Source: a bacterium (GTDB taxonomy: Bacteria; Margulisbacteria; WOR-1; O2-12-FULL-45-9; XYB2-FULL-48-7). Taken from it: a DNA stretch of 64,000 bases. The stretch is taken from NCBI GenBank assembly GCA_043812655.1, contig JBDRLW010000008.1, positions 3,198-67,197 of the forward strand. Reading direction: 5' to 3'. The position numbers and the translations under genes are program-made. Below are positions 3,439-61,008 of this stretch, piece by piece. A model generated the notes under the pieces. That model worked only from the letters and a program-made list of their open reading frames with translations, had not been told where the DNA came from and did not search any database. How positions within the stretch are numbered: position 1 is the first letter of the stretch; each line of letters begins with the position of its first letter.

Positions 3439-4310
3439 TCTTCTTTTTATATTTCCTGCAATTTCTTTTTCGGTTGATTTTCTTACTGCCGCCAAAACTG
3501 GCTATTATTCTCATGAACCTAGCGGGCGAGGCCACTTATCAGATCGCTTGCCGGACCCCGATCAGAAAAACAGTTGCTAATAATTTTTCTTTGGTTTTCC
3601 CCAATATTAAGATAACCAATACAGATGTCTTGGCAAAAAAGACACTTCACAACATCGCCTACTCTATTTTTGAGCTCCTGTGCATGCCATTCTTAACCCC
3701 CTATCATGTTTCCCTCATCAGCCAAATAATTGGCCGGGAAAATATTGAGGCCGGATTAAAACACGGCAAAGGGGTTTTACTGCTCATGATGCATACCGGT
3801 AATTATGAGATCACTCCGGTCATTTTAACTTCGCAGGGATACAAGATTAACTCAATTTTAAAAGCCACCAATGACCCGATGTTCAAATTCCTTAACAAAA
3901 CTCGTGGCCATAAGGGGGCAAAGATAATTAATGTCCTGGAATCAAATATGTACAGCGAAGCCTTAAAAGTTCTAAAGCAAAATGAGATCGTCGGCTTGCT
4001 GATCGATACCGGCGCCCTTGAAGGCAGACATGAAATGCTCCCCTTTCTCGGAAGAAAAGTCCCAGTGGCGACCGGCTGGCTGACTTTAGCCGAAAGGTCT
4101 AAAGCCGCGGTTATTCCCGGCTACTCAAAACGCGAGGGAGAGAAACTTATCTATTATTTCAGCGAACCGCTCCAGGTCTCTCGTGATAACCGGGAAGCAA
4201 CGATCGAAAAAGTCCGCCAATTCTACGAAGAGCTTATCAAAAACAATCCTGAACAATGGGCGATCTTCTTGAATGAATATGAAGTCAAAAGGATGGTGGC
4301 AGGGAAATGA
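3435..4310 (+). CDS. Lipid A biosynthesis late acyltransferase (LpxL/LpxM-like LPLAT family)
   Basis: HTGNYE (HX4D/E acyltransferase motif) and an N-terminal TM helix. ATGA overlap with the msbA stop. Confidence 0.65.
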   Translation: MIFFLYFLQFLFRLIFLLPPKLAIILMNLAGEATYQIACRTPIRKTVANNFSLVFPNIKITNTDVLAKKTLHNIAYSIFELLCMPFLTPYHVSLISQIIGRENIEAGLKHGKGVLLLMMHTGNYEITPVILTSQGYKINSILKATNDPMFKFLNKTRGHKGAKIINVLESNMYSEALKVLKQNEIVGLLIDTGALEGRHEMLPFLGRKVPVATGWLTLAERSKAAVIPGYSKREGEKLIYYFSEPLQVSRDNREATIEKVRQFYEELIKNNPEQWAIFLNEYEVKRMVAGK

Positions 4311-5965
4311 ACCGTAAAAACATCTTAATATTAATCGCTATGGCAGTTTGTTTATACTTTTTCAAACTCGGCAGTTTCTCATTGTACGACGCGGCGGAGA
4401 CGACTTACGGCGAATTCGTTAAAAACATGCTGGGGATGAAAGATTGGCTGACATTCCATTACAACGGACAGATAATCTTTGATAAGCCCCCGCTCTATTA
4501 TTGGTTCGCGGTCATCTTTTCTAAGTTGATCGGGTTCAATGAATGGGCCATGCGCCTCCCTGCTGCTATCTCCGGGCTCCTAACCGTAATCGTCACCTAT
4601 CTCCTCGGAAAAACATTTTACAATAAACAGGTTGGATTCCTTTCCGGCATAATTGTGATGACCGCTTTCCAATTTCTCGTCCAATCGCGGATCGCGGAAT
4701 TAGATGTTGTCCTCACCCTCCTTATGACGTCGGCAATTCTCTGTTTCTACTTGGGTTACACCAGCGGGGAGAAAAAATATTATACGTTAAGCTATGTCCC
4801 TATGGCCCTAGCCGTTTTGATCAAAGGGATCCTTGGCGTTGCCCTCCCCGGCTGCGCGATCTTTCTTTTTCTGTTGATCAAAGGAGAATTAAAGATCCTA
4901 AAAGAGATGCGGATCCTCTCTGGGATCGTAATCATCACCTTGATCGGCCTCCCCTGGTACCTGGCAGAATATCTCATTCATGGTCAAGTTTTTCTTGATT
5001 TTGCCTTGGGTTTTCTTTTCCTTTCCCGGTTCCAAGGCGCGGTTTGCGGCCATACCGGCCCTTGGTATTATTATTTCCTCGCTTTAATTTTAGGTTTTGC
5101 TCCCTGGTCGCAATTCATTCCGTTCGCTTTCTGGCGAGCATATAAAGAAGTTTCTTCTCCCAACTCCCAACTCCGAACTCCAATGCTTCTTTCCCTTTGC
5201 TTTGTTATCCCCGCCTTTATCGTCTTTTCGGTCGCTAAAACCAAGATACCTAACTACATCCTCCCCCTTTATCCTTTTCTGGCCATCATGGTGGGGAAGT
5301 TGTGGGCTGAAGTTTTATCGGAGCCTGAGAATAAATTCTCGGCTCCTCAAGAAAGCAAAACAAGAATTAATTCTCGTTTTGATAAAAATGGAACCGCGAA
5401 TTTATTCGCAGGTTCCTACGGAATAACATTATCCAACATCCTTTTTGCCGTTGTCATCGCCCTAATTTTCATTGGTTGTATCATGATCGCTAATTCCAAT
5501 TATCCAACACAATATATATCCCTACTCCCTAGCCTCTACACCCTAGCGGCTATCTTAGTCCTTGGCGGCGTGATCTCAATTACCGCTTATTTTCTAAAGA
5601 AATATACTCTTTCTTTTGCCGCTATCCCAACAATGGTTTTTATCATCACTTTGATCTTGACTGTCTGGGCCCTGCCCGAAGTTGAAAACTTTAAGGGAGC
5701 TAAAGAACTGGGAAAAGAATTAAATATTGTTATTAAACCAAATCAAATTATCGCCGCTTACAATGTCGGCAATCGCCCGAGTGTTGTTCTTCACAGCCCA
5801 AAGCCAGTTAAGTTCTTGGAGACCGAAAAGGAATTATCCGTTTATATTAATCATAAAAAAGGTTACGTGTTTACATTGGTTGAAGAATATGAAAAAATGA
5901 AGGAAAGATTGCCAGCCAGGACCAAGGTTTTGGCTAAAAAAGGCGACCTTTTAATATTATATTAA
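4307..5965 (+). CDS. GT83/PMT_2 family membrane glycosyltransferase (ArnT-like), paralog 1
   Basis: Polytopic membrane protein with N-terminal YDAAETTYGEFV...DKPPLYYWF, as in ArnT / dolichyl-phosphate-mannose transferases. Carries two in-frame repeat inserts (5159-5188 and 5321-5418). Confidence 0.7.
   Translation: MNRKNILILIAMAVCLYFFKLGSFSLYDAAETTYGEFVKNMLGMKDWLTFHYNGQIIFDKPPLYYWFAVIFSKLIGFNEWAMRLPAAISGLLTVIVTYLLGKTFYNKQVGFLSGIIVMTAFQFLVQSRIAELDVVLTLLMTSAILCFYLGYTSGEKKYYTLSYVPMALAVLIKGILGVALPGCAIFLFLLIKGELKILKEMRILSGIVIITLIGLPWYLAEYLIHGQVFLDFALGFLFLSRFQGAVCGHTGPWYYYFLALILGFAPWSQFIPFAFWRAYKEVSSPNSQLRTPMLLSLCFVIPAFIVFSVAKTKIPNYILPLYPFLAIMVGKLWAEVLSEPENKFSAPQESKTRINSRFDKNGTANLFAGSYGITLSNILFAVVIALIFIGCIMIANSNYPTQYISLLPSLYTLAAILVLGGVISITAYFLKKYTLSFAAIPTMVFIITLILTVWALPEVENFKGAKELGKELNIVIKPNQIIAAYNVGNRPSVVLHSPKPVKFLETEKELSVYINHKKGYVFTLVEEYEKMKERLPARTKVLAKKGDLLILY
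5159..5188. repeat. R3 repeat (tcttctcccaactcc-naactcc-naactcc) in frame in GT83 paralog 1
   Basis: Encodes SSPNSQLRTP. Confidence 0.7.
5321..5418. repeat. R5 double-hairpin repeat in frame in GT83 paralog 1
   Basis: GGAGCCtGAGAATaaaTTCTCGGCTCC...GGAACCGCGAATttaTTCGCAGGTTCC encodes SEPENKFSAPQESKTRINSRFDKNGTANLFAGS. Confidence 0.7.
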
Positions 5966-5966
5966 T

Positions 5967-6683
5967 ATGAATAAATTAGATTTATCAGTTTCTATTCCGA
6001 CCTACAACGAAGCCAAGAACATTGAAACGATGATCATTCGTGTCCATGATGCTTTGCGCGCCCACGGGATAAATGAAGAGATCATTATTGTTGACGACAG
6101 CTCGCCCGATGGGACTGCAGCACTGGCCGAAAAAATGTCCAAAGATTATCCGGTTAGAGTTTATGTTAGGACCAAACGCGAAGGCCCCGGTCCCGCCATT
6201 ATGGATGGGATCAGACTGGCGCAAGCTCCGGTTTCCTGCACCATGGATGGAGACCTAAGCCACCCCCCCGAAGCGCTCCCTGAAATGTATAAGCTGATCA
6301 AATCAGGCCAAGCGCCCCTCGTTATCGGTAGCCGCCATGTTAAGGGAGGCGGCACTTCCAAGTGGATCTGGTATCGCAAATTTTTCTCCTGGGGAGCCCG
6401 GCAATTAGGTCGGCTGCTGACCCCGGTTCACGATTTAACCTCTGGATTTTTCATGTTCGACAAAAAGATCTTGCAAGGAGCAACGATCGATCCTATCGGT
6501 TGCAAAGTTGGACTTGAATTGATGGTCAAAGGGAAACACAAGGGCAAAGTCATCGAATATCCAATTATCTTCTCCGAACGGGCGGCCGGTGAAAGTAAAA
6601 TGGGTTGGCGTGAAACCAAACACTATCTTTACCATCTTGGCTCTCTCCTGCTTTGGAAAACGGCTAACATTTTCAAAAGATGA
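5967..6683 (+). CDS. GT2 polyprenyl-phosphate sugar transferase (ArnC/DPM1-like)
   Basis: GT-A fold, DxD (VDDSSPDG), about 238 aa. Classic partner that makes the lipid-linked donor for GT83 enzymes. Confidence 0.7.
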   Translation: MNKLDLSVSIPTYNEAKNIETMIIRVHDALRAHGINEEIIIVDDSSPDGTAALAEKMSKDYPVRVYVRTKREGPGPAIMDGIRLAQAPVSCTMDGDLSHPPEALPEMYKLIKSGQAPLVIGSRHVKGGGTSKWIWYRKFFSWGARQLGRLLTPVHDLTSGFFMFDKKILQGATIDPIGCKVGLELMVKGKHKGKVIEYPIIFSERAAGESKMGWRETKHYLYHLGSLLLWKTANIFKR

Positions 6684-8689
6684 TCGATCTTTCGGTTATT
6701 ATCGTCAATTATAATGGCGAGAAATATTTAAAGGACTGCCTCTCCTCGATCTATCAAAGTACCAAGAATATTAATTTCGAGATAATCTTTGTTGATAACC
6801 ACTCAGCCGATAATTCTGTCGACATTATTAAAACAAATTTCCCTAAAGTCATTATTATTGAAAACAAGAATAATCACGGGTTTTGCCGAGCTAATAACCA
6901 GGGTCTGAAGATATATCAAGGAAGATATGCCCTACTATTAAATAACGATACGATCGTAAAAGATGGCGCGCTAGACCAGCTGGTGCAGTTTATGGATAAC
7001 AATCCTGGCGCTGGGGCTTGCGGCCCCCTCCTCTCTAATCCCGATGGTTCACCACAACATCAAGGCGGAATATTTAATAAGAAGTTCTGGTTATCCTCTT
7101 CTCCAACTAAAGTCTCTTATGTCATCGGAGCGGCGCTAATGGTTAGGCGGGAAGTGGTTGATAAGGTCGGCGGGATGGACGAGAATTTCTTTTTTTCTAA
7201 TGATGACCTTGATTGGTGTTTGCGGATCAAAAAGGCCAGTCACGACGGGCAAGCCGGTTGGGATATTTATTTTGTTCCCCAGGCAAAAATAATGCATTAT
7301 GGCGGTTTTACGATCAATAAATTCAATCAAAAGTTATTTGTCGAAGGTTTCAGAGGCGGCCTCTATTTCTGCCGCAAACATTACGGCTTTTTAGCCTACC
7401 AATTGTATCGATCATTGCTGATCATAGGGATGATAATCGCTATTCCCCTTACTTTGATACTTTATCCATTTTTAAAACATAAAAAGAAATTAAATGCCTT
7501 TATTGAAATTTTGATGATTACCTTACAGCCCTCACCCCTGTCCCCTCTCCCAAAGGGAGAGGGGTGGAAAAACATTTTGTTAGTGAGCAACGGCCACGCG
7601 GAAGATCTAGCCGCTGCGGCAATTGGGGGAACACTGCAAACAGCAAGTCCAGATCTTTCTATTAGAGCCCTTCCTTTAGTCGGACTAGGGCAAGCCTATG
7701 ATAAAAAAGGAATAATAAATCTTGGCCTAAAGAAAATCTTACCCAGCGGTGGTTTTGCCAAAGAAGGGATATTCCATTTTTTAAATGATCTCCGCTCTGG
7801 CTTTTTTAGCCTCTTTCATCAACAGATCAAGATCCTGAGGCAAGAAGCTAAAAAAACTGATCTAGTCGTCGCTGTCGGAGACGTCTGGGTGGTGGCTTTA
7901 TGCGGCCTATTTGTTAAAAAACCTTTGATCTTCATCGATGGTCCAAAGTCAGTCAAGATCGAAGGTTATTATAAATTAGAACTTTGGCTGCTAAAGAAAT
8001 TCTGCCAAAAAGTTATCGTCCAAGACCCCGAAACAGCTGACTACTTACAGAAAAAAGGGATCCCCGCTTTTTATCTTGGTAGCTGGGTAATGGATTATGT
8101 CCCCGTCACTGGCGATAACCTTGGAATTGATCCGGGCAAAACAGTGATCGGGATTCTTCCGGGAACGCGTGAGGAAGCCTATCCTAACTTAAAATTGATC
8201 CTCGAAGTCTTTGAACTCTTGTCTCAATCTGACAAGAACCTGGTCGGAACGATTGCCTCTGTCTTAAATAAAGATAAAATTAAAATCCCTGGTTGGCAAT
8301 TAGAAGATAATAAACTAACTTCGAATTCTGGCGCTACGGCTTATCTTATCGAAGGCAAATTCGGCGATGTCTGTGTCCGCTCAAAACTTATCATCGGCTT
8401 GGCCGGGATCGCCAACGAACAAGCCGTCGCTTTTGGCAAACCAGTCGTCTGCTTCCCTGGTAGCGGAGCCCAAACGACTCTCCGCCGCTGGCAAGAAATC
8501 CACAAGATAACCAGCGATTCGATGCTGATTGTGCAAGGAAATACTGTAGAAAAAGCGGCCAAGATAATGAGATTATTGAAGGATGAAAAACGATTAGCAG
8601 TGATGGGAAAGATCGGAAAAGAGAGTAAACCAATGTGGGGCGGAGTTGAGAGGATCGCTAACCTGGTCAAAACTACTATCTCAAATTAA
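6680..8689 (+). CDS. Fused GT2 glycosyltransferase (N-terminal) plus GT19 LpxB-like domain (C-terminal); a repeat element lies at the junction
   Basis: N-terminal 250 aa are GT2-like (IIVNYNGEKYL, DNHSAD). C-terminal 380 aa are LpxB-like (LLVSNGHAEDLAAAAIGG, PGTREE). The R1 repeat at 7528-7568 encodes the linker QPSPLSPLPKGEGW. Confidence 0.55.
   Translation: MIDLSVIIVNYNGEKYLKDCLSSIYQSTKNINFEIIFVDNHSADNSVDIIKTNFPKVIIIENKNNHGFCRANNQGLKIYQGRYALLLNNDTIVKDGALDQLVQFMDNNPGAGACGPLLSNPDGSPQHQGGIFNKKFWLSSSPTKVSYVIGAALMVRREVVDKVGGMDENFFFSNDDLDWCLRIKKASHDGQAGWDIYFVPQAKIMHYGGFTINKFNQKLFVEGFRGGLYFCRKHYGFLAYQLYRSLLIIGMIIAIPLTLILYPFLKHKKKLNAFIEILMITLQPSPLSPLPKGEGWKNILLVSNGHAEDLAAAAIGGTLQTASPDLSIRALPLVGLGQAYDKKGIINLGLKKILPSGGFAKEGIFHFLNDLRSGFFSLFHQQIKILRQEAKKTDLVVAVGDVWVVALCGLFVKKPLIFIDGPKSVKIEGYYKLELWLLKKFCQKVIVQDPETADYLQKKGIPAFYLGSWVMDYVPVTGDNLGIDPGKTVIGILPGTREEAYPNLKLILEVFELLSQSDKNLVGTIASVLNKDKIKIPGWQLEDNKLTSNSGATAYLIEGKFGDVCVRSKLIIGLAGIANEQAVAFGKPVVCFPGSGAQTTLRRWQEIHKITSDSMLIVQGNTVEKAAKIMRLLKDEKRLAVMGKIGKESKPMWGGVERIANLVKTTISN
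7528..7568. repeat. R1 G-rich palindromic element copy (gccctcacccc...CCCTCTCCCaaaGGGAGAGGG) inside a CDS, in frame
   Basis: Seen directly. Shares box and hairpin motifs with eight other copies. Confidence 0.8.
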
Positions 8690-9658
8690 GCTTGCATAAA
8701 CCTCATCCACCGTTAAAAGATCCATGCAATTCGGCTTGATCTCACAGCTTTTCTGATAACAGACAGTACAGTCTATCTTTGGCATCAGTTTTTTCCCTAA
8801 GCCATATAACTCGATCTCCGCCGCCGATGTCGGGCCAAAAAAGACCACCATTTTTTTCTTTAAGGCGATCGCAAAATGCATCGCTAAACTATCGCTAGAA
8901 AGGATAGTCGAACATTGGTTGATAACTGAAGCAAAACCGCGAAGTGAATGGACTCCCGCATCAGTCATCCCGGTCGCTTTGGCTATTTCTTGGTTTCGTT
9001 CCCTTTCATCCTGCCCGCCAAGAATTATCGAATTTATCCCTTGCTCTTTTTTCAACCGGTTGACTAAATCGATCGTTTGCTTGGTCCCCCAGCTTTTCTG
9101 CGGCCAGCGCTTCCCTGCCCCAGTATTGATCCCATAAACATTTTTATCTCCAGCTAACCCTAATTTCTCAACGACTTTCTTGCCGTATTCAATTTCTTCT
9201 GCAGTTAAAGAAAAAACATAAGGAGAAACTTTTATCCCTAAAAGATCGGCCATATGTTGCTGATAGGTTTTCTGATTGATTCTTTTTAGCTTATTAGCTT
9301 TTTCTAAACCATATTGAGAGATGATCGACATATCAAACCAGCCCGAAGGAGTGTATGTAACCTTACCATCATCATAATAAGCGCCAATGATCTTTTTGGC
9401 TTTTAGGCTGGAGACAAATTGACAAACCTCCTGGCCGTCTTCGAGCCCAATAATAAGATCATAATCACCTAATTTAGATCGATCCTCCCAAGCACAAGCA
9501 TTATTCAGATGCGAATTGCCAGATAACAATTCTGTCGAGATCGTGGAGGTTAGCCAGTCTATTTGAGCCTCGGGATATTTTTCTTTTAGGCCGGATAAAA
9601 GTGAAGTGGTCCGCAAAACATCACCAATCGCCCCTAATTTAACAATAAGGATTTTCAT
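8681..9658 (-). CDS. ADP-heptose:LPS heptosyltransferase (GT9, WaaC/WaaF-like)
   Basis: MKILIVKLGAIGDVLRTT N-terminus typical of GT9 heptosyltransferases; about 325 aa. Confidence 0.7.
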   Translation of the reverse strand: MKILIVKLGAIGDVLRTTSLLSGLKEKYPEAQIDWLTSTISTELLSGNSHLNNACAWEDRSKLGDYDLIIGLEDGQEVCQFVSSLKAKKIIGAYYDDGKVTYTPSGWFDMSIISQYGLEKANKLKRINQKTYQQHMADLLGIKVSPYVFSLTAEEIEYGKKVVEKLGLAGDKNVYGINTGAGKRWPQKSWGTKQTIDLVNRLKKEQGINSIILGGQDERERNQEIAKATGMTDAGVHSLRGFASVINQCSTILSSDSLAMHFAIALKKKMVVFFGPTSAAEIELYGLGKKLMPKIDCTVCYQKSCEIKPNCMDLLTVDEVYASLI

Positions 9659-9674
9659 ATGTTATAATTTTATC

Positions 9675-11066
9675 ATGTATTTAATTATATTTTTGCTTGC
9701 GATCAACCTTTTCAAGATTAGCATCGCCCGTTATTTCCCGTTGATCGGCGACGAATCATTTTACTGGTTGTGGTCTCGTCATCTGGCTTTAAGCTATGAT
9801 TCCCATCCACCCATGATCAGTTACATCAACTTTATCTTGACTTCACTCTTTGGCCCGAGTGAGCTGGCGATCCGTTTGACCGCCATCATCATAGTATTTT
9901 CTATTTCTCTGTTTATCTACCGAACCGGCAAGGAATTGTTCGATTCCCGTGCGGCGGCGGTGGCCGTTATCGTCTTTAATCTATTACCGACCTTTTGGGC
10001 GGGCGGGATGTTCCTTGTCCCCCAGACCGTCTTTTTCTTCTTTTGGGCATTGAGCTTTTATCTTTTGGTTCTTATTATTAAGCATAAAAACGCCAGCCTC
10101 TGGTCTCTACTTGGGCTCACAGTCGGGCTTGGCCTGCTTAGCGACCATGTTATGGCGTTGTTCGTTATTGGCACACTGATCTTCTTTGGGTTTGTTAGGG
10201 AACAGCGTTTCTGGTTCACTAAAAAAGAACCCTACCTGGCTTCGCTAATAATTTTAATCGTCTATTCTCCGGTTATCATTTGGAATTTCCAGAATAACTT
10301 TGTCCCTTTTCATTTCTGGGGCGGCAGTGTTGCGCCCAAGGTTACCGAGCACCTTTTTAACTTTTTTGGCCTGCAGATGCTGTTATACACTCCACCGATC
10401 TTGGTGATGACCATTTATCAGCTTTTTCGGCTCCGGCCCGGGTTGCCGGCCCGTGACAGCCAAAATTTTCTTCTTGCGATCTTTTCGTCTGTTGTTTTTC
10501 TCCCTTTTCTTATGATCAGCCCGATCGTCAATGTCGGCGGCCATTGGCCTGCCGCTTCATATTTCCCCGCCATTCTGGGCTCGGGGCAGGTAAAAAAAAT
10601 AATACTCGGTTTGACCATCTTCTTTGCTCTGCTGGTCAATATCCTGGGCTTTACTTATTTTCTTTTTCTTTATCCTACCCCGCCGGAATTAAAAGGAAAA
10701 GAATTCACTATTAACCGTTCACTACCAGAGTTCTTAAAGTCAGCTACCCCAAAAAAAGGAAGCACCTTCTATTTTGCCAACAACTTGGGCTTGCTTGGCT
10801 TGGTCTCGTTTCACGGAAAGACCAACGCATACATGGCTTCGGGACGAATGTGGCTAGTTGACCAATGGGAGACGCCCAACATCAAAAAGGGGGATAATGT
10901 GCTCTATTTTGTACTTGATGAAACAACCCTTTACACTAAGTTAAAACCGCTTTTCCGCAAGGTCTGGATCGAACCCCAACCAAGGATTTTCGCTAAAGAC
11001 GCCGATATTCCCACCAAAACCCAGATCTATCATTGTATTGGCTACAAAGGAGGTCTAATCCCTTGA
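9675..11066 (+). CDS. GT83/PMT_2 family membrane glycosyltransferase (ArnT-like), paralog 2
   Basis: ARYFPLIGDESFYWLW...HPPM motif, polytopic. Start moved to the ATG at 9675 to avoid overlap with the convergent GT9 gene. Confidence 0.6.
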   Translation: MYLIIFLLAINLFKISIARYFPLIGDESFYWLWSRHLALSYDSHPPMISYINFILTSLFGPSELAIRLTAIIIVFSISLFIYRTGKELFDSRAAAVAVIVFNLLPTFWAGGMFLVPQTVFFFFWALSFYLLVLIIKHKNASLWSLLGLTVGLGLLSDHVMALFVIGTLIFFGFVREQRFWFTKKEPYLASLIILIVYSPVIIWNFQNNFVPFHFWGGSVAPKVTEHLFNFFGLQMLLYTPPILVMTIYQLFRLRPGLPARDSQNFLLAIFSSVVFLPFLMISPIVNVGGHWPAASYFPAILGSGQVKKIILGLTIFFALLVNILGFTYFLFLYPTPPELKGKEFTINRSLPEFLKSATPKKGSTFYFANNLGLLGLVSFHGKTNAYMASGRMWLVDQWETPNIKKGDNVLYFVLDETTLYTKLKPLFRKVWIEPQPRIFAKDADIPTKTQIYHCIGYKGGLIP

Positions 11067-12044
11067 TCAGAGCACTTGGAATCTTTTTAAGGCTCGTTCT
11101 ATACCGCTGCGGAAATCAATAGTATATTTAAACCCCAGTTGTTTCAGTTTGGCCGGATCACCAGCTCGGGCAAAAACTCCCTCCGGCTTATCCGATGTCC
11201 CACGAACCTCCGGGGTAAAACCGCAGAGATCAGCGACAATTTTGGCAAAATCAATAAAACTCGTGTAAATCCCGGTCGCTAAATTGACGGCGCCGGCATC
11301 ATCTATTTTATCCATTGTCCTTAATATCCCTTCAACGCAATCTTCAATATGGATAAAATCGCGCCTTTGCCTTCCCGTCCCCCACACCGTAATAACCGGG
11401 GCGCCGCGATTGGCCAGGACCCGTTTGCAAATCGCCGGGAATGGGTAAGTATCATCTTGATCCTCCCCATATCCTGAAAAAGGACGATAAACAACAGACT
11501 TTAACCCATGTTTTTCATAAGCTAGCTTCGCCAGATATTCACAAGTCAATTTTGCCCAACCATAAGACATATCGGGCATGCCGATATCAAGGTCAAAGGC
11601 GATCATCTCTTCCTTTAACAGTTTATGATCTTTTTCTCTTTGGTGTTTGATCGGGTAAGCGGCGCTCGAACTGAAACAAAGGCTCTTTTTCGGCTTAGTC
11701 TTTACCGCCCATTGCCAGTATTCGGCATCGATCGACAGGTCATCGGCCACCGCCAGCGGATTATTCTCGATCATCAGCCGCCCCCCCACCATCGCCGCCA
11801 GGTGGAAACAATAGTCAAAATCGGTATCATCTACCCGGTTAAAATAATCCCGGCAATCTTCGTGGTAAAAATGGAAATTCTTGAAGTCTAGGGGGGAATA
11901 TAACGGCCATTTTTTCGGCAAAAGTCCACCAGTCAGCGGAGCAACTTTATCGACACAATGGACTTCATCGCCAAGCTCCAAAAGGCGCTTAACTACATTC
12001 CGGCCGACAAAACCGGCACCGCCGGTGACAAGGATTTTACGCAT
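11067..12044 (-). CDS. NAD-dependent epimerase/dehydratase (extended SDR; nucleotide-sugar modifying)
   Basis: N-terminal Rossmann GGAGFVGRNV, YxxxK region, about 325 aa. Confidence 0.75.
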   Translation of the reverse strand: MRKILVTGGAGFVGRNVVKRLLELGDEVHCVDKVAPLTGGLLPKKWPLYSPLDFKNFHFYHEDCRDYFNRVDDTDFDYCFHLAAMVGGRLMIENNPLAVADDLSIDAEYWQWAVKTKPKKSLCFSSSAAYPIKHQREKDHKLLKEEMIAFDLDIGMPDMSYGWAKLTCEYLAKLAYEKHGLKSVVYRPFSGYGEDQDDTYPFPAICKRVLANRGAPVITVWGTGRQRRDFIHIEDCVEGILRTMDKIDDAGAVNLATGIYTSFIDFAKIVADLCGFTPEVRGTSDKPEGVFARAGDPAKLKQLGFKYTIDFRSGIERALKRFQVL

Positions 12045-12954
12045 GGAAATGCTTCCGGTAAAGGGTAAAAGCTTCTTTTGCAGCGGCAGGGAGGTAATTC
12101 ATGATGGCTTCAGGATCACCGGGAAGCTTGGTTACTATCTCTAAGTTGTTTTCATAGCCAAGATATTCCTTTTTCATATCGACCACTAGATCATGTTCAT
12201 TCCTTTGCTGGTAAACAGAAGCCCGGTTAAACACAACTTTCGCGCCTCTCGCCTGTACATAATAAGCGGCCCAGATATCATCCATCCTGCCGATATGAGG
12301 AAATAAAAAATAATCTTTCAACAGTTCCCCTTTTAGGATGGTGTTTTGCGAGTTAAAAGGCGAAAGCTTATTGGCCGCTAGCGGAAAAGCCGCCGGCGCG
12401 AATTTACATTCCGGCTTATAGATCATCCGGCAAACCGCGTCAATATCAGGATCTCCATCCCAAAAATCGGCCTGCACATCAAAGGCCATTTTCTTTTTTG
12501 ACTTTAAACTATAGTCTCTTTTAGGTACTAATTGTAGCGGATAACCGCGATGCCATAAGCGGTTTTCATTGGTAGCACCGATCGAATCAAAAGCCGGTAA
12601 TTTTGTCTCATAATAATTCACTTCAACTTCTTCTCCAACAATCAGGTTTTTTCCCCAATCAGGATACGGGATGTTGTCATCATCGATCACCGCGACCAGG
12701 TCAGCCTGCAGGTCATAGGCCCATAACAGCCCAAAATTCCGCCGTTGGATACATTTCCAGCCAATCGCGTCAGACAAAGGCTTGTCATATTTTTCTTGTT
12801 CCTCGGGAGAGACATAGATCCCCCGTTTTAATTTATAATCTTTTTGGGTTTTTAGGTCGCCAATAACTACGAGCGTCCAATCAGTCATGGCATCAAATTT
12901 TTCTATCGCTTCGGTCGGGGGATTAATCGTTGTTGTGACAATGACTTTTTTCAT
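12037..12954 (-). CDS. Hypothetical protein, possibly a GT-A fold glycosyltransferase (DDD motif; STELLO/GT75-like?)
   Basis: VIDDDNIPYPDW DxD-like motif. Co-operonic with the GT2 and epimerase genes. No firm family match from sequence alone. Confidence 0.35.
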   Translation of the reverse strand: MKKVIVTTTINPPTEAIEKFDAMTDWTLVVIGDLKTQKDYKLKRGIYVSPEEQEKYDKPLSDAIGWKCIQRRNFGLLWAYDLQADLVAVIDDDNIPYPDWGKNLIVGEEVEVNYYETKLPAFDSIGATNENRLWHRGYPLQLVPKRDYSLKSKKKMAFDVQADFWDGDPDIDAVCRMIYKPECKFAPAAFPLAANKLSPFNSQNTILKGELLKDYFLFPHIGRMDDIWAAYYVQARGAKVVFNRASVYQQRNEHDLVVDMKKEYLGYENNLEIVTKLPGDPEAIMNYLPAAAKEAFTLYRKHFHA

Positions 12955-13694
12955 ATTAGAATCTGCTCCTTCGGATAAAATAGGGTCTTTAATCCGATCC
13001 TAAAATACTCAAAATTTCTCCAGAAAGTATTCTGCGATCCGCCTTCACTCCGCGCTTTCCATTTAGAAGGGACTTCCTTCACCTCAACACCCAATCTAAG
13101 CGGCTTTACTATTGTCTCAAAAAGAAAAGGATGGCGCAATTCTTCCCAGCGGATAGATTTGACCAATAGCGCGGGAAAAAGCCGGTAACCGTAAGTCATA
13201 TCCGTTAACTTTGTCCGGTACAATATTGAAAAAAAACGTTGGAAGATAAAATTAAGCAGATATTTTAACAGGCTGTATGACTGGAATCCTCCCCCCTTTA
13301 TCCAGCGCGAGCCGGTTATTATTATAGTTGAATCCTTTTTTGCGGCTTCAATAAAGTTTTTCACTTCATCCGGAGCGGTTTCCATGTCGCTCGCCATCAT
13401 TATAATGTGGCTTCCAGAAGCAAACTTGAAGGCATCCCTCATAGCGCCGCCCAGGAAAGGGAGGGCCTGTTTAAGCATCTTTAACTTTTCACCATATCGA
13501 CTTTTAAGTTGTTCGCAGACTTTTAAGCTTTCCGGTGTTGTTTTATCACACACTACGACAATAAATTCCAATATATCGCTGGCACAATCAGCAGTGATGA
13601 TCTCAATGGTCTTCTCTAGCGACACGGTCTCGTTGATGACCGGCAGAATAACGGAGACCGATTTGAATGCCTGTTTATTTAATTCTTTCAACAT
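12951..13694 (-). CDS. GT2 glycosyltransferase (polyprenyl-phosphate sugar synthase-like)
   Basis: VSVILPVINE...VVVCDKTTPES GT-A fold N-terminus. Confidence 0.65.
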   Translation of the reverse strand: MLKELNKQAFKSVSVILPVINETVSLEKTIEIITADCASDILEFIVVVCDKTTPESLKVCEQLKSRYGEKLKMLKQALPFLGGAMRDAFKFASGSHIIMMASDMETAPDEVKNFIEAAKKDSTIIITGSRWIKGGGFQSYSLLKYLLNFIFQRFFSILYRTKLTDMTYGYRLFPALLVKSIRWEELRHPFLFETIVKPLRLGVEVKEVPSKWKARSEGGSQNTFWRNFEYFRIGLKTLFYPKEQILI

Positions 13695-13784
13695 TTGTTG
13701 GTTGTTTAGCCTCTATATAATAGCCAAATAAAATCATTTTTATATGATTATAACATATATAATGTTGACATTATTTAGAGGGCT

Positions 13785-15227
13785 TTAGAGGCTGACCGCT
13801 CCCTTAAAACCGGTACAATAATATGGGACCAGGTCATCTAAGTAACTTTCAATAGCATAAAGGTCCAGATCGGGTCTGATAACAACCCTGGCAAACTGTT
13901 TTTTCAACTTTTGTTTTGTCTCTAGATTCGCTGGCCCAAAATAAACGATATTCTCTCCCCTCTTTATATCTGGTCCACCCCACAGGTCAAATTGCTTCTG
14001 GCCAAAGCCATGTTCTTCGACCCTTAAATAATCTTTGACCATAAAAGTCGGTTGATGTGTATAAAATGCCAGTTCGGAGGCCATCCCATGATACGGTGCC
14101 ATTATATATGTATGCGGCGGCAACCTCTGATATTTTTGGACTAAAGAATAATTTTGCTGGTATTGTGCTTGCCGGGGCAAGAGCATTGATGAGCCAAATA
14201 GAATAAGTGAGACAGCTATAATATCAAATACCCAGATGGCAATAACAACTCGCCTGGTCACTTTATAATTACCAGCGATCATTACTGCCACTCCTGATAA
14301 GGCTGCAAATTGATACACTATCACCCAATGGGCCCATACTTTAATGACAAAAGTAAAAGCTAGGAAGATTAAAAGAAGCGGAATAGAAAAAGCAAAATAA
14401 TATTTACTTTTTTGCCACAGCTGTCTTGCATAAATTATAAATCCTAAAAATAAGAAGGGAGTAAAATGAACTAATTGATCTCCGATCAGGTCCAGGATAT
14501 TTTGAGGAATATTCGTCTTGCCTAAACGTCCGGAATGAAAGAGAAAAGAGATAAAATTATGCTGTACGTTCCAAATAATTATCGGTGAAAAAATAACGAT
14601 CGATAATAAAAAAGCCAAATAAGGCTCTTTTTTGAATAACCACCCTCGTTGGTTCTTATCAAAGATCAAAATTAAAAATACCGGCAACAGAAAAAAAACC
14701 ATCGTATATTTTGATAGTACCCCGAAACCAAACGCGAAAGCGAACCAATACCAATCGGTCGGTTTCCCCTCTTTATAGATCTTGGCAAAAAAGTAGAGTG
14801 CAAGAGCCCAAAACATCGCCAACGGATTATCGATCGTTACCGTTAACCAGATGATTATGTAATGTGGGATAAGTAGGAATAATGTCGCCGCGATAATCCC
14901 GACTTTTCTATCAAATAAAGTCTCTCCAGTCTTATAAATAAAATATGTGGCGATTATAGCTAGCGTCAGCCCAGCCAAGCGGAAATTAAACAGGTTATAT
15001 TCCCCAAACAAGCTGATGAATTTATTAAAATAAGCAATAAAGGCGGGATGATCGACATAAGAAATGGACAGGTGTTTATGCCATAACCAATAATAAGCCT
15101 CATCACAAGTGATGGGAAAAAGCTGCATCGCCCAGAGCTTAAAGGAATTGACCGTGATAAATGAAACCACAAAAAAGCGGTTTAGCGGATCATTGAGGAA
15201 GCTCTTTATTCTTTCCATTGCTCCCAT
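13785..15227 (-). CDS. GT83/PMT_2 family membrane glycosyltransferase (ArnT-like), paralog 3
   Basis: CDEAYYWLWHKHLSISYVDHPAF motif, polytopic. Confidence 0.65.
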   Translation of the reverse strand: MGAMERIKSFLNDPLNRFFVVSFITVNSFKLWAMQLFPITCDEAYYWLWHKHLSISYVDHPAFIAYFNKFISLFGEYNLFNFRLAGLTLAIIATYFIYKTGETLFDRKVGIIAATLFLLIPHYIIIWLTVTIDNPLAMFWALALYFFAKIYKEGKPTDWYWFAFAFGFGVLSKYTMVFFLLPVFLILIFDKNQRGWLFKKEPYLAFLLSIVIFSPIIIWNVQHNFISFLFHSGRLGKTNIPQNILDLIGDQLVHFTPFLFLGFIIYARQLWQKSKYYFAFSIPLLLIFLAFTFVIKVWAHWVIVYQFAALSGVAVMIAGNYKVTRRVVIAIWVFDIIAVSLILFGSSMLLPRQAQYQQNYSLVQKYQRLPPHTYIMAPYHGMASELAFYTHQPTFMVKDYLRVEEHGFGQKQFDLWGGPDIKRGENIVYFGPANLETKQKLKKQFARVVIRPDLDLYAIESYLDDLVPYYCTGFKGAVSL

Positions 15228-15283
15228 TATAATTGAAGGCTAAGTCAAAATAAAGTAAGATTATATGAGGTCATTAAGTTCTC

Positions 15284-15345
15284 GAAAACCTGCGAATGAA
15301 ATTCGCGGTTCCATTAAAATAACCGAGAACTTTATTCTCCGGTTA
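15284..15345. repeat. R5 repeat, inverted orientation, intergenic
   Basis: ctgcgaatgaaattcgcggttcc...aaccgagaactttattctccggtt. Confidence 0.65.
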
Positions 15346-15350
15346 CGTAA

Positions 15351-16991
15351 ATGCAAATAAAAAAGAACATATTAATATTTATTCTCTGCGTTTTCATTAC
15401 GATTTCATTCGTCACCCTCCCTCGTAACCCGTTGCAAAACGATGACGCCTCCCTTTACGCTCTGGCGGCAAAAAATGCGGTTGTTCATGGCCAGTGGCTG
15501 GCACAATTTATTTCTCCAGGTGATAGCTCATCATTTCTAGACAAGCCACCACTTGGCATCTGGCTTTTAGCCTGGTTACCAAAAATATTTGGCGTTAGCG
15601 AATTAACGATCCATTTCCCCAATGTCATTTATTATTCATTTCTTCTTCTTATCATATACTTGGCAATTTCATATTTAAGCTCACGAAAGCTAGCGCTCTA
15701 TTCAACTATTATTGCCGCCACTAGTCTTGGGCTTGTCGTCTACTCTCGGGCGCCAAAATTGGATGTTCTGCTAACTTTGTTTGTAATGACCGCTAACCTA
15801 GCCATTTATGCTTATTTAAAGAAAGATAAGCCTGTTTTTTTGTATCTCTTTACTCTCTCTATAATTTGCGGGACTTTGATCAAAAGCGGCTTTGGCCTGA
15901 TTTTCCCGGCCCTAACAATATTATTCTTACTAATTTTTAATCCTTATGCCAGAAAAAAGCTTTTTTCTGCCTTATTGTCTTTGCACTTCATATTAAATAT
16001 TTTACTCTTTTTATTGGTCACGGGAGGCGTTTTATCCTCTCAATCGATCAGCCTAAAAGATCAATGGCTTCCCTATCTTATTAGTATTTCCATTCAGAGC
16101 AAATATAATACAAGTTATTTAGGCTTTGGGTTTTATTATTCGATCATTGGCTTCTTGCTATTAATTCTCTTCCCTTGGTCTCCATTATGGCTGACTTCAC
16201 TTAAAAACCCACTCTCAAGAAAAAGTAATCGTCATACCCCACACTTAAGTGTGGGGTATCAAAAACTATCTCTTTCCTCGTTCTGCAATCTCTGGTTCTG
16301 GTCCAACGTTTTATTTCTATTATTCTTCTACCGCCAAAATGACCTGCGGACTTTTACTGTTTTTTGTCCGCCGCTGGCAATCTTGGCAGGGATACGCTTG
16401 GCTCTTCTCATCGGGAAACCTGCGACTAAACGTCGCGGTTTCCTCGCCCTTTTAGGCTGGAACAGTTTTTTACTCTTTGTTTTTGGCGCATTTACTGTTG
16501 CCTTATTATTTAATCCCCATAATGCGGAGGGATTCAATCTTTCTTCCGCAATCCAGCCTTTATCCCTTTTTGTTCTTTCATTAATAACAATGATGATCTT
16601 TTTCTGGCAACCGACCATTAAAATATTAACCATGACTTTTTTCCTGGTTTGCTTGGCTTATAGCCTTCTCTTCTGGAACAGCCAGGTTTTAGTTAATGCC
16701 TTTAATCCGGACGTTACTTGGCCAAAAACCATTGCTAACTATCAAGCCAAAGGCTATAAGTTCTATATTTACCGCCCACCGGACCGTCAGCTTTTTTATA
16801 GCCCCGATCTCTTTTACGTAGATTTTATGGCCGGCCCAGCCGACCAATATTTTTGGGATCCAATAATGTTAAAGGACGCCTTAAAGCTTAATGAAGCTAT
16901 TGTTCTTAGCGACACCAAGAGCTGGAGAAAATTAAAGATGACCGGAAAAACAATCGCTCAAGATAGCTACTCATGCTTAATTTTGAGATAA
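15351..16991 (+). CDS. GT83/GT39-like membrane glycosyltransferase, paralog 4 (more divergent)
   Basis: DASLYALAAKNAVVHGQWL...DKPPLGIWLLAW, polytopic, 546 aa. Confidence 0.55.
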   Translation: MQIKKNILIFILCVFITISFVTLPRNPLQNDDASLYALAAKNAVVHGQWLAQFISPGDSSSFLDKPPLGIWLLAWLPKIFGVSELTIHFPNVIYYSFLLLIIYLAISYLSSRKLALYSTIIAATSLGLVVYSRAPKLDVLLTLFVMTANLAIYAYLKKDKPVFLYLFTLSIICGTLIKSGFGLIFPALTILFLLIFNPYARKKLFSALLSLHFILNILLFLLVTGGVLSSQSISLKDQWLPYLISISIQSKYNTSYLGFGFYYSIIGFLLLILFPWSPLWLTSLKNPLSRKSNRHTPHLSVGYQKLSLSSFCNLWFWSNVLFLLFFYRQNDLRTFTVFCPPLAILAGIRLALLIGKPATKRRGFLALLGWNSFLLFVFGAFTVALLFNPHNAEGFNLSSAIQPLSLFVLSLITMMIFFWQPTIKILTMTFFLVCLAYSLLFWNSQVLVNAFNPDVTWPKTIANYQAKGYKFYIYRPPDRQLFYSPDLFYVDFMAGPADQYFWDPIMLKDALKLNEAIVLSDTKSWRKLKMTGKTIAQDSYSCLILR

Positions 16992-16998
16992 TATAATT

Positions 16999-18537
16999 AT
17001 GAACATTTGGCTATTGTTAGCAATTACAACTTTGTTACGGCTCTGTCTGGCGTCGCTTTTCCCTATCACCGCCGATGAATCATACTATTGGCTCTGGTCA
17101 AAGCATTTAAGCCTTTCTTATGTCGATCATCCGCCAATGGTGGCGGTCGTTAATTGGCTTTTCACCCACGGGACAGAAAACCTGATCATGCTCCGTCTGG
17201 GGACGGCAATAATTTCATTTTTGGTTAGCCTGCTCATCTATTTCCTAGCGAAAGAAGTTTTCAATGAAAAAGTCGCTTTCTGGTCGGTGGTCCTGTTCCA
17301 AATCCTTCCCCACTTCGTCGTCATCTGGTTGACGCAATTTGTCGAACTCCCGCTCGCTTTATTCTGGACTTTATCATTATTGATTCTGGCAAAAATATTC
17401 AATTTTTCCCATCCATCTTCTCCGAACCCCCAAATCCGAACTCCTAACTTATTATGGCTCGCGCTCGGCCTCACCATCGGCCTGGGTTCCCTTAGCAAAT
17501 ACACCATGTTCCTCTTCTGGCCGTGTCTTGGATTATTCTTTATTCTCTCTCCCGAAAACCGTTTCTGGCTTAAGCGAAAAGAACTTTACCTATGCCTTCT
17601 CCTAAGCCTATGCTTTTTTTCTCCAGTATTGATTTGGAATAACAACCATGCCTGGGCATCGTTTCTCTTCCATGGCAGTAAAGCTAGTGGAGATGCGTGG
17701 GGAACAAATTTTCTCCCCTTTGTTGGCGATCAATTAGTACACTTTACGCCTTTCCTTATTTTTACTCTTTTTGCTGTCGCTAAATCCTTCTTTCCAACTA
17801 ACAAACTAATGGCTCGACAAGCCCTTCGGCAAGCTCAGGGCAACATCGAGCGGAGTCGAGATGCTCGCCATCCCAGCCATCCCGAGCTCCGTCGAGGGAC
17901 AAACCAACAAACCAACCAACTCCCCCTCCTCCTCGCCTCGTTCTCCTTCCCCATCCTCTGCCTTTTCCTTTTCCTAAGCCTTAAGGTCAAGGTCTGGGCC
18001 CACTGGCCGGAGATCGGTTATATTGCGGCCATTCCCTTAACAATTAATTACTTAATTGAAAAGAATAAATCATTAAATAAATTCATTACTTGGATTGCAG
18101 GCTTCACCGGTTTAGTTCTAATTATTCTATTTTGGGTCACGCCAGCCATTCTCTTACATCAGAAAGATTACCTGGCTAATTATCAATTAACCAATTCAAT
18201 CCCCAAAGAGTATAAGCTCTTTGCCAAAACCAATGTCTCTTCGTCTCTCCTTGAGTTTTATACCAAGCGACCGGTTTATATGGCCACCGGTTTTTTAAAA
18301 GAGAACCATCTCTGGGGCGAAAAACAGTATGAACTCTGGGGAATTCCCAATTTAGTTAAAGGGGAAACTGTCATATATTATGGTGATGATACCCCTTTCT
18401 TTCAAGAAAAAGCCAAAACTAATTTCAGAAGCATTACAGAATTACCGGTTAAATTGTATTTAATTGAGGATTATATTACTAATAATTATAAGATGTTTAA
18501 ACTAGAAGGTTATAAAAGATCCGCTTCTCACCCTTAG
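16999..18537 (+). CDS. GT83/PMT_2 family membrane glycosyltransferase (ArnT-like), paralog 5
   Basis: ADESYYWLWSKHLSLSYVDHPPM motif. Carries in-frame repeat inserts R3 (17417-17448) and R4 (17803-17915). Confidence 0.65.
   Translation: MNIWLLLAITTLLRLCLASLFPITADESYYWLWSKHLSLSYVDHPPMVAVVNWLFTHGTENLIMLRLGTAIISFLVSLLIYFLAKEVFNEKVAFWSVVLFQILPHFVVIWLTQFVELPLALFWTLSLLILAKIFNFSHPSSPNPQIRTPNLLWLALGLTIGLGSLSKYTMFLFWPCLGLFFILSPENRFWLKRKELYLCLLLSLCFFSPVLIWNNNHAWASFLFHGSKASGDAWGTNFLPFVGDQLVHFTPFLIFTLFAVAKSFFPTNKLMARQALRQAQGNIERSRDARHPSHPELRRGTNQQTNQLPLLLASFSFPILCLFLFLSLKVKVWAHWPEIGYIAAIPLTINYLIEKNKSLNKFITWIAGFTGLVLIILFWVTPAILLHQKDYLANYQLTNSIPKEYKLFAKTNVSSSLLEFYTKRPVYMATGFLKENHLWGEKQYELWGIPNLVKGETVIYYGDDTPFFQEKAKTNFRSITELPVKLYLIEDYITNNYKMFKLEGYKRSASHP
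17417..17448. repeat. R3 repeat in frame in GT83 paralog 5
   Basis: tcttctccgaacccccaaatccgaactcctaac encodes SSPNPQIRTPN. Confidence 0.7.
17803..17915. repeat. R4 repeat (long form, about 110 bp) in frame in GT83 paralog 5
   Basis: aacaaactaATGGCTCGACAAGC...TCGCCATCCCAGCCATCCCGAGCTCCGTCGAGGGAcaaaccaacaaacc with a 41-bp internal segment absent from the other copy. Confidence 0.75.
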
Positions 18538-29545: not shown

Positions 29546-33947
<4,402 letters not shown>

Positions 33948-35373: not shown

Positions 35374-35466
35374 TCTTAAACCCGGTCATTTTACGACAAT
35401 TATGTAGAATATTTGGGGTGTTTTTACGTTTTTGTATGGATATATTTAGGGTTACGTTCGGAACCT

Positions 35467-59643: not shown

Positions 59644-61008
<1,365 letters not shown>

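Follow-up and report, generated by a model that had tools for sequence, protein, structure and literature searches.

Introduction

In Rhizobium and Mesorhizobium, ArnT-like GT-C glycosyltransferase paralogs (RgtA, RgtB, RgtC, RgtD and RgtF) modify the lipid A and core of lipopolysaccharide (LPS) at the periplasmic face, each acting on a different position. RgtA and RgtB are reported to add galacturonic acid (GalA) to Kdo (PMC4402001), and RgtD and RgtF to glycosylate lipid A at positions 4' and 1 (PMC9393093, PMC7663294). The donor is made by RgtE, a GT2 enzyme and bactoprenyl-phosphate GalA transferase, one synthase standing beside several GT-Cs (PMC7663294, PMC9393093). Three-component systems, made up of a PPPRS, a MATE protein and a GT136 enzyme, produce a lipid-linked monosaccharide donor in the cytoplasm and transfer its sugar by an external GT-C, with auxiliary epimerases diversifying the sugar (Kelly et al. 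2024; PMC11127046). The subject of the present work is a cluster of five ArnT-like GT-C genes (PMT_A to PMT_E) among LPS-type genes in a 64-kb stretch of DNA, referred to throughout as the window, from an uncultured Margulisbacteria/Saganbacteria-like bacterium known from a metagenome-assembled genome (MAG).

The layout of the cluster is that of the Rgt systems, several GT-C paralogs and a family 2 glycosyltransferase (GT2) as candidate lipid-donor synthase being found with LPS genes, a correspondence of architecture only. As in the Rgt systems, transferases outnumber donor synthases, here five to two candidates. Unlike in Rgt, all genes lie in one locus beside msbA and lpxL, no LpxE/LpxF-type phosphatase is encoded in the window, and transferase families D and B/C/E are for the most part confined to the lineage, as judged from their database relatives. 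The locus also resembles the ArnT/ArnC (GT83/GT2) pair in that PMT_A adjoins an ArnC-like GT2 and that ArnT is the top fold match for PMT_C and PMT_D, but homologues of ArnA, ArnB, ArnD, ArnE and ArnF are missing from the cluster and the GT2 next to PMT_A (GT2_1) is devoid of ArnC's C-terminal transmembrane (TM) helices. With GtrA/B/C and the three-component systems it would share a lipid-linked donor made in the cytoplasm and a GT-C acting outside. It differs from the latter in that the cluster carries no flippase gene, that the candidate synthases are GT2 enzymes rather than PPPRS proteins dependent on phosphoribosyl pyrophosphate (PRPP), and that the auxiliaries are a GT75-like homologue and a short-chain dehydrogenase/reductase (SDR), which presumably act at the level of the nucleoside diphosphate (NDP)-sugar. 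We propose with moderate confidence that the cluster is a conserved locus for an envelope glycolipid, most likely the lipid A/core of LPS, and that this is glycosylated in the periplasm in an Rgt-like manner.

Organization and conservation of the cluster

Open reading frames (ORFs) of the window were scanned with Pfam and NCBIfam models, applying Pfam gathering and NCBIfam equivalog cut-offs, and the neighbourhood was compared with three metagenomic contigs (L003, L005 and L006) and with WOR-1 genome GCA_001771575.1 (L007). The genes of the cluster, by position in the window, are the following.

639..1730, plus strand: soluble protein marginally similar to LpxB (Pfam LpxB, 24.6 bits; cut-off 22.6); first gene of the operon
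1717..3438, plus strand: MsbA-like ATP-binding cassette (ABC) exporter (ABC_membrane and ABC_tran), candidate lipid A/core flippase
3435..4310, plus strand: LpxL/HtrB-like late acyltransferase (Pfam Lip_A_acyltrans, 118 bits)
4307..5965, plus strand: PMT_A, ArnT-like GT-C (PMT_2, 87.2 bits); start overlaps the lpxL stop
5967..6683, plus strand: GT2_1, a soluble GT2 of small size paired with PMT_A, candidate synthase of a polyprenyl-phosphate sugar (ArnC/GtrB/PpgS-like; Glycos_transf_2, 115 bits)
6680..8689, plus strand: fusion of a Leloir-type GT2 (amino acids 1-230), a TM linker and an LpxB-related GT-B domain (amino acids 300-665)
8681..9658, minus strand: GT9 heptosyltransferase-family enzyme (Glyco_transf_9, 52.7 bits)
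9675..11066, plus strand: PMT_B, GT-C of the B/C/E family (PMT_2, 108.5 bits); the listed ORF starts at GTG 9606
11067..12044, minus strand: SDR nucleotide-sugar epimerase/reductase (Pfam Epimerase, 118 bits); last gene of the minus-strand operon
12037..12954, minus strand: GT75-like NDP-pyranose mutase homologue (305 amino acids; no Pfam domain; annotated "hypothetical")
12951..13694, minus strand: GT2_3, the cassette's small GT2, likewise a candidate synthase of a polyprenyl-phosphate sugar (Glycos_transf_2, 52 bits)
13785..15227, minus strand: PMT_C, GT-C of the B/C/E family (PMT_2, 113.2 bits); first gene of the minus-strand operon
15351..16991, plus strand: PMT_D, ArnT-fold GT-C, lineage-restricted (PMT_2, 56.1 bits)
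16999..18537, plus strand: PMT_E, GT-C of the B/C/E family (PMT_2, 81.6 bits)

This gene content is real and far beyond chance. The five PMT-type paralogs announced in the original prediction all exceed the PMT_2 (PF13231) gathering cut-off of 26.1 bits (E-values from 7e-15 to 2e-32); each has about 9-14 hydrophobic segments, followed in the structural models (PMT_C and PMT_D) by a C-terminal alpha/beta domain. The true start of PMT_B is probably ATG 9675, as judged from alignment with its orthologues. The msbA-like, lpxL-like and GT9 neighbours were likewise recognized correctly, msbA and lpxL lying just outside the segment that had been delimited. In the plus-strand string formed by the 639-1730 ORF, msbA, lpxL, PMT_A, GT2_1 and the fusion gene, successive genes overlap by 4-14 nt or are separated by a 1-nt gap; the 639-1730 ORF, which has no TM segments, overlaps msbA by 14 nt. 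In the minus-strand operon PMT_C lies 90 nt upstream of GT2_3, the GT75-like gene and the SDR gene, which overlap one another. PMT_D is followed on the plus strand by PMT_E. Directly upstream of the plus-strand operon is a gene for a chagasin-family peptidase inhibitor I42 (195-569, minus strand; 79 bits).

The core msbA-lpxL-PMT_A-GT2-GT2 and five PMT_2 genes recur in each of L003, L005 and L006, where the MsbA-like exporter again adjoins lpxL/PMT_A and the LpxL-like orthologues are 45-53% identical. These three contigs also have a GT4 gene and additional GT2 genes within the cluster. In the WOR-1 genome, orthologues of PMT_B, PMT_D and PMT_E stand beside three GT9 genes, and the GT9 protein is 62-67% identical across the three contigs and this genome. 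Next to the GT-C cluster, in the window as well as in L003, L006 and the WOR-1 genome, stands a radical SAM gene with hisS after it, indicating that the chromosomal position of the cluster is conserved. The radical SAM gene of the window (18680-19588, minus strand) encodes an enzyme of the AmmeMemoRadiSam system (TIGR04337, 341 bits); in the window and the WOR-1 genome thiS/H/G are added to this block.

Relationship of the GT-Cs to ArnT and to each other

The transferases were compared with characterized GT-Cs by fold and by profile ranking. PMT_A is the one paralog with clear sequence similarity to ArnT, matching the C. metallidurans enzyme (5EZM) with E=1e-40 over residues 6-331. It falls short of the ArnT equivalog model NF009784 (143.8 bits; cut-off 567), which the other four do not match, and ArnT Asp55 aligns with its Ala30, Asp28 and Glu31 being nearby. 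AlphaFold gave confident models for PMT_C (predicted local distance difference test score, pLDDT, 92.4; predicted template-modelling score, pTM, 0.90) and PMT_D (pLDDT 90.8, pTM 0.91). In a Foldseek search of the Protein Data Bank (PDB), ArnT (5F15) ranked first for PMT_C (E=6e-8, TM-score 0.65), followed by oligosaccharyltransferases and ALG9 (about 1e-5), Pmt4 (1.7e-4), Pmt1/2 (about 2e-3), AftD (2.5e-3) and Emb proteins (at least 4e-2). For PMT_D, ArnT (5F15) stood alone on top (E=1.6e-12, TM-score 0.72), the next match being at 1.5e-4 and EmbB and PMT following at 3.9e-4 and 2.4e-3. PMT_B and PMT_E are presumably ArnT-like as well, given their 28-32% identity to PMT_C.

Kinship with protein O-mannosyltransferases or arabinofuranosyltransferases, which the original prediction had named as the outcome that would change its interpretation, was thus not seen at the fold level, PMT_C and PMT_D being closest to ArnT by fold and PMT_A by sequence. 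Assignment to the GT39 PMT class is disfavoured in that PF02366 scores lower than PMT_2 or is absent, no MIR domain was matched and Pmt folds lie far below ArnT; ArnT likewise outranks AftD, Emb and EmbB in the PMT_C and PMT_D searches, which speaks against the Emb/Aft class. No gene of the 4-amino-4-deoxy-L-arabinose donor pathway (ArnA, ArnB, ArnD, ArnE/F) was found among the scanned ORFs of the window.

PMT_B, PMT_C and PMT_E are mutually 28-32% identical over their full length, the values for PMT_B with the other two being 28-31%. PMT_A and PMT_D share about 28% identity across the N-terminal 190 residues only, and A/D could not be aligned with B/C/E by BLAST. Judged by these comparisons, the five genes represent three old families (A; D; B/C/E) and not recent copies. 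By best-hit analysis each paralog has a one-to-one orthologue in L003, L005 and L006. With 51-67% identity, these orthologues are much closer to it than the other paralogs are: 56-62% for PMT_A, 51-63% for PMT_B (WOR-1 genome included), 56-67% for PMT_C and 56-63% for PMT_E. The PMT_D family gathered 88 matches, about 84 of them strong (at least 266 bits) and four weak (46-53 bits) from elsewhere, the score dropping from 266 to 53 between the two groups. All named strong matches are from Margulis-, Sagan- or Riflemargulisbacteria, so that this family appears essentially lineage-restricted. Among the paralogs' database relatives with a named organism, too, nearly all come from Margulisbacteria, Saganbacteria (WOR-1) or Riflemargulisbacteria. 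The count of five, which had been thought unusual, is therefore typical of the lineage and has a precedent in RgtA-D/F of Rhizobium.

Acidic motifs are present in the first loop of all five proteins: YDAAE (A), GDES (B), CDEA (C), NDDA (D) and ADES (E). Within B/C/E, D42 and E43 are invariant in alignment A1, and in alignment A3 E43 is invariant and D42 conserved in at least 90%; Y46 and H60-P61 are invariant, W49 is invariant or nearly so, and D59 is nearly invariant. Family D has invariant D31-D32, D64-K65 and R133-P135-K136, and PMT_A carries FDKPP in addition to YDAAE. A D/E-(K/H)-P-P motif is invariant or nearly so within families. These motifs correspond to the first-loop acidic pair and the E84-K85 "EKPP" site of ArnT.

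Donor synthases and LpxB-related proteins

GT2_1 (72-77% identical in relatives) has its best NCBIfam matches to PgfS, AglJ, ArnC, Dol-P-hexose transferase and PpgS, and GT2_3 (57-73% identical in L006, L009 and L010) to AglJ, PgfS, ArnC and Dol-P-hexose transferase. All are below cut-off, the scores on polyprenyl- and dolichyl-phosphate synthase models being 29-60 bits against cut-offs of 325-529. The GT2 domain of the fusion protein is most similar to a rhamnosyltransferase, MftF and Leloir GT2s of the exopolysaccharide type. The original prediction had counted three polyprenyl-phosphate GT2s; two of these (GT2_1 and GT2_3) stand as candidates, but a set of three donor synthases was rejected, the third GT2 being of the Leloir type and fused to an LpxB-related domain. 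It had also assigned each paralog a donor of its own. There are two candidate synthases for five transferases, and L003 and L005 keep all five transferases while lacking GT2_3 and its partners; one donor each is therefore not supported.

Of the two genes described as LpxB-like, the fusion passes TIGR03492 ("lipid-A-disaccharide synthase-related", function unknown) through its C-terminal domain with 228.5 bits (cut-off 219.2), and the 639-1730 product barely passes the Pfam LpxB cut-off, but both are far below the LpxB equivalog, which makes the relationship remote only. The C-terminal domain scored 22.7 bits with LpxB equivalog TIGR00215 (cut-off 190.25) and had no PDB match, LpxB included, at E<=1; the 639-1730 product scored 26 bits with the NCBIfam lpxB equivalog (cut-off 190) and matched no solved structure at E<=1. 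Genes 64-65% identical to the fusion gene were found only in candidate division WOR-1/Saganbacteria MAGs in a scan of genome contigs, on two short contigs. In L005 (15871-17815) the fusion is split into two genes (288 and 361 amino acids), identity in the LpxB-related part being as low as 33%.

A GT2/GT75-like/SDR cassette

Two genes between PMT_B and GT2_3 had been overlooked in the original prediction: one for the SDR epimerase and one for the GT75-like mutase homologue. The latter, a 305-residue protein, matches the MtdL structures 7XPR/7YUA with E=1e-15 and no Pfam family at E<=10; the Pfam RGP model of the plant GT75 proteins is among those not matched. It has 7147 database homologues, whose named copies are all "hypothetical protein" and none of which carries a Pfam domain. 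Identity is still 71-76% for copies from Kiritimatiellaeota, Bacteroidia, Omnitrophica, Pirellulales and a Chroococcidiopsidaceae cyanobacterium, the values for MAGs of Bacteroidia, Omnitrophica and cyanobacteria being 72-73%. Across 16 sequences from 6 or more phyla, D91-D93, R136, S202/Q203, R223 and D226 are invariant. In MtdL, Arg159 is autoglycosylated, Ser228/Gln229, Arg257 and Asp260 have assigned roles, His287 coordinates Mn and Asp87 is catalytically required (PMC9937993). The 305-residue family keeps the MtdL catalytic set, namely the DDD motif, the Arg159 equivalent, the Ser-Gln pair, Arg257, Asp260, Arg289 and His292. At the position of His287 it has an invariant Gln249, so that this Mn ligand is replaced, and at that of Asp87 the window's protein has Ile69, the alignment there being less certain. 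The altered metal site calls for caution with the mutase reading. Relative to MtdL/Hyg20 (GT75; plant UAM/RGP), the protein is shorter (305 versus about 375 residues), and its family occurs in envelope-glycan loci of many phyla, not in antibiotic clusters.

The SDR protein has a weak top NCBIfam match to GDP-L-fucose synthase (97 bits; cut-off 500), and GDP-mannose 3,5-epimerase, GDP-fucose synthase and UXS are among its relatives in the PDB; it is 73-86% identical in L006, L009 and L010. The gene order GT2/GT75-like/SDR recurs in five contigs:

window: 11067-13694
L006: 5743-8352
L009: 7225-9894
L010: 7205-9891
L011: 7243-9897
L012: 7203-9897

Overall the cassette is 57-77% identical among Margulisbacteria, Kiritimatiellaeota, Pirellulales and unassigned contigs, with identities across phyla of 57-64% for its GT2 and 73-77% for the SDR. 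In a further contig, L013, a different GT2 gene lies upstream of the GT75-like/SDR pair, and a GT10 (fucosyltransferase-family) gene lies downstream of it (9899-11017). This GT10 gene and the SDR's weak similarity to GDP-fucose synthase and GDP-mannose 3,5-epimerase hint at a GDP-linked L-sugar as substrate. The loci concerned (L006 and L009-L013) are all of the surface-glycan kind and contain genes for Wzx, Wzy_C, GT4 or GT9. Most cassettes adjoin an unannotated polytopic protein, two of these with an N-terminal acidic pair ("GDD" and "IDEAD"), and in the Pirellulales contig (L010) an LPG_synthase_TM protein precedes the cassette. Local hidden Markov models gave no link between the polytopic neighbours in other phyla and PMT_2; to regard these neighbours as GT-Cs is a guess from topology and the N-terminal acidic motif.

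No description of such a cassette was found in the papers searched. We propose that it could provide polyprenyl phosphate with an unusual sugar, possibly a furanose, which would then be transferred outside the cytoplasm. A more specific scheme is offered tentatively, as possible but doubtful: the SDR would make an NDP-sugar, a metal-dependent GT75-type contraction would convert it to the furanose form, the GT2 would load it onto polyprenyl phosphate, and a GT-C-type enzyme (here PMT_C, elsewhere the unannotated polytopic proteins) would transfer it to LPS or another surface glycan wherever this widespread cassette occurs.

Repeat-derived insertions

Repeat insertions in several paralogs had been noticed in the original prediction and are confirmed, all being in frame. 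Six such insertions are found in four cluster genes, five of them absent from orthologues by alignment:

5153-5181, PMT_A: 6 amino acids, window-specific
5315-5422, PMT_A: 26 amino acids, window-specific
7542-7563, fusion linker: 22-nt palindrome, in frame
16234-16259, PMT_D: 26-nt perfect palindrome encoding a disordered loop
17416-17444, PMT_E: 11 amino acids, absent from all orthologues
17779-17925, PMT_E: 38 amino acids, absent from all orthologues

The L003 orthologue of PMT_D shares the palindrome region (TPHLSVGY), which is therefore older. For all insertions, copies or palindromic structure can be found elsewhere in the window. The segments 5153-5181 and 17416-17444 are 90% identical; 5315-5422 consists of three small hairpins, pieces of which recur at 15287-15315 and 35458-35506; and 17863-17900 is an exact 38-nt copy of 46144-46181, with similar AACAAAC-rich flanks at both sites. 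The latter pair belongs to an element resembling a miniature inverted-repeat transposable element (MITE), with AACAAAC-rich flanks and an internal inverted repeat, at 17779-17925 (in frame in PMT_E) and 46100-46200. The second copy falls within the 5'-terminal part of ORF 45477-46235, whose true start probably lies downstream of the copy. A palindrome family, CCCTCTCCC-NNN-GGGAGAGGG, has 8 copies in the window against 0.02 expected, at 7543, 18573, 18623, 24185, 27997, 48494, 48542 and 63702; seven are intergenic and one, in the fusion linker, is in frame. Two copies (18573..18644) lie just downstream of PMT_E.

The insertions are concentrated in these membrane-protein genes and lie between conserved blocks. 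PMT_D alone among the paralogs combines an insertion with a structural model, and there pLDDT falls below 50 nowhere but in the insertion (residues 292-302). They had been taken as a sign of relaxed or diversifying selection, but one-to-one orthologues at 51-67% identity and acidic motifs that are conserved or nearly so argue against this. The insertions sit in tolerant loops of otherwise conserved genes; insertion tolerance in a repeat-rich genome is the better description.

Host lineage and remainder of the window

Margulisbacteria and Saganbacteria are non-photosynthetic sisters of Cyanobacteria, and to our knowledge nothing is known experimentally about their outer-membrane lipid. OmpM outer-membrane tethers are present in the lineage (10.1101/2021.05.31.446380), which is therefore diderm. 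Despite this non-photosynthetic affiliation, the cyanobacterial HIP1 octamer GCGATCGC is 9-fold enriched in the window (11 copies against 1.2 expected; for example at 3151, 8865, 32920 and 44482). The host was nevertheless not taken for a true cyanobacterium, since its closest homologues with a named organism are almost all from Margulis- and Saganbacteria.

The G+C content is 42-50% across most of the window, whose remaining genes are housekeeping: thiamine genes, hisS, glutamate synthase (GOGAT), two glutamine synthetases (GS), F-ATPase, Amt and glutamate dehydrogenase (GDH). Those concerned with nitrogen assimilation are:

29538-33947: GOGAT
33984-35318: GS I
35555-37681: GS III
44250-45470: Amt
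59680-61008: GDH

In this window rich in nitrogen-assimilation genes there is also an NrpR-family regulator (58567-59583, minus strand; PF01995, 273 bits); NrpR is familiar chiefly as a nitrogen repressor of euryarchaea. A restriction-modification enzyme of Type ISP (52980-56069, minus strand; Type_ISP_C, 287 bits, and N6_Mtase) is encoded in the lowest-GC patch of the window's second half (0.40 at 52-54 kb) and may have been acquired horizontally.

Discussion

The following scheme would accommodate the genes of the cluster. The LpxL-like acyltransferase, the GT9 enzyme, the GT2/LpxB-related fusion and the marginal LpxB-like protein may build and acylate a lipid-anchored glycan in the cytoplasm, which the MsbA-like exporter would flip to the periplasmic face. 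The two small soluble GT2s (ArnC/GtrB/PpgS type) would load sugars onto polyprenyl phosphate, and the five ArnT-fold GT-Cs would transfer these to different acceptor positions on the periplasmic side. PMT_A and GT2_1, encoded in the msbA-lpxL operon, would be an ArnT/ArnC-like pair most likely acting on lipid A itself, while the operon partners of PMT_C (GT2_3, the GT75-like protein and the SDR) probably supply an unusual sugar, possibly a furanose. Lipid A/core is the most likely acceptor because the ArnT/ArnC-like pair is coupled to msbA-lpxL, the GT9 gene is conserved and the lineage is diderm. With GT-Cs of the polyprenyl-phosphate-sugar type in an LPS-like context, multiple periplasmic glycosylations are the natural reading, and in this the original prediction was right in kind. 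A possible parallel comes from the sister phylum: Synechococcus lipid A carries no phosphate and bears GalA (PMC4515613), a kind of substitution that in rhizobia is installed by ArnT-like enzymes and that by analogy might apply here.

Several points weigh against assigning the locus to lipid A/core. The LPS-type neighbours score below their specific models: the top NCBIfam model for the exporter, MsbA_lipidA, gives 511 bits (cut-off 602), the LpxL-like protein has 91 bits (equivalog cut-off 298), and the GT9 enzyme has 65-73 bits with the heptosyltransferase I/II/III models (cut-offs 135-185). Model scans of the window revealed none of the genes lpxA/C/D/H/K, waaA, lpxE/F and Lpt, and the cluster has no donor flippase gene (GtrA, ArnE/F, SMR or MATE), nor spare room or a small polytopic ORF for one. 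The ArnT likeness of PMT_C and PMT_D is at the level of fold, with 13-14% identity, and profiles of B/C/E and of D detected no solved GT-C among PDB sequences, the sole match being an expression-tag sequence. Other GT-Cs from this Pfam family act on proteins and polysaccharides. Gene content, operon structure, one-to-one orthology, conserved motifs and ArnT-like fold or sequence are observed here, while the acceptor, the sugars and the pairing of transferases with donors are inferred.

Two other acceptors have therefore to be weighed. Most or all of the GT-Cs could add side chains to an O-antigen or other surface polysaccharide after its polymerization, the adjacency to msbA/lpxL reflecting a general clustering of envelope-glycan genes. 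Three-component systems that join a lipid-linked donor synthase, a flippase and a GT-C are common in periplasmic O-antigen modification (PMC11127046); in other phyla the cassette is found at loci of the O-antigen type, in the company of Wzx, Wzy_C, GT4 and GT9, and GT4 and extra GT2 genes lie inside the cluster in L003, L005 and L006. However, Pfam scans found no Wzx, Wzy, Wzz or ABC O-antigen exporter in the window's cluster, PMT_A and GT2_1 are part of one overlapping or nearly abutting gene string with msbA and lpxL, and PMT_A alone has clear sequence similarity to ArnT, which together make the side-chain explanation rather unlikely. Still less probable is a role for some or all of the five in protein O-glycosylation, comparable to that of the PMTs of actinobacteria and eukaryotes, with secreted, S-layer or pilin proteins as recipients of sugars from polyprenyl-phosphate donors. 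Pfam PMT (PF02366) clears its cut-off in A (64 bits), C (35 bits) and E (31 bits), NCBI names these proteins "glycosyltransferase family 39", and oligosaccharyltransferases come second in the PMT_C fold search; yet PMT_2 outscores PMT in every case, Pfam scans reported no MIR domain for any of the five, solved PMTs rank far below ArnT (Pmt4 and Pmt1/2 for PMT_C, PMT for PMT_D), and the neighbours are lipid A/LPS-type genes, not genes for secreted proteins.

A different kind of explanation holds the paralogs to be redundant, under relaxed selection and eroded by mobile repeats. The six in-frame insertions across four cluster genes and the mostly intergenic location of the same repeats elsewhere in the window would fit with it, but all ORFs are intact, one-to-one orthologues are far more similar (in three contigs, with B, D and E also in WOR-1) than paralogs are to each other, catalytic motifs are invariant or nearly so, and the insertions fall between conserved blocks, that of PMT_D in the only low-confidence loop of a confident model. 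This explanation is largely refuted and must be considered highly improbable. Rgt-like glycosylation of lipid A/core is, on balance, the reading we retain.

LPS glycosylation of the ArnT/Rgt type is known; new are its conserved, lineage-typical members described here, and the unannotated cassette is the more novel thread. The cassette is among the more conserved unannotated ones in bacterial surface-glycan loci, and assigning its sugar would annotate thousands of genomes. If the scheme proposed for it were true, it would constitute a second way of making lipid-linked furanose donors, one that starts from NDP-sugars, unlike the PRPP-based pathway of mycobacteria and of the Citrobacter three-component systems. 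Families D and B/C/E would widen the known acceptor range of ArnT-fold enzymes. For Margulisbacteria and Saganbacteria, the locus offers a concrete, testable parts list for the outer-membrane lipid: an ArnT/ArnC-like pair joined to msbA-lpxL, together with four ArnT-fold neighbours, predicts a heavily sugar-substituted, possibly phosphate-poor, lipid A/core.

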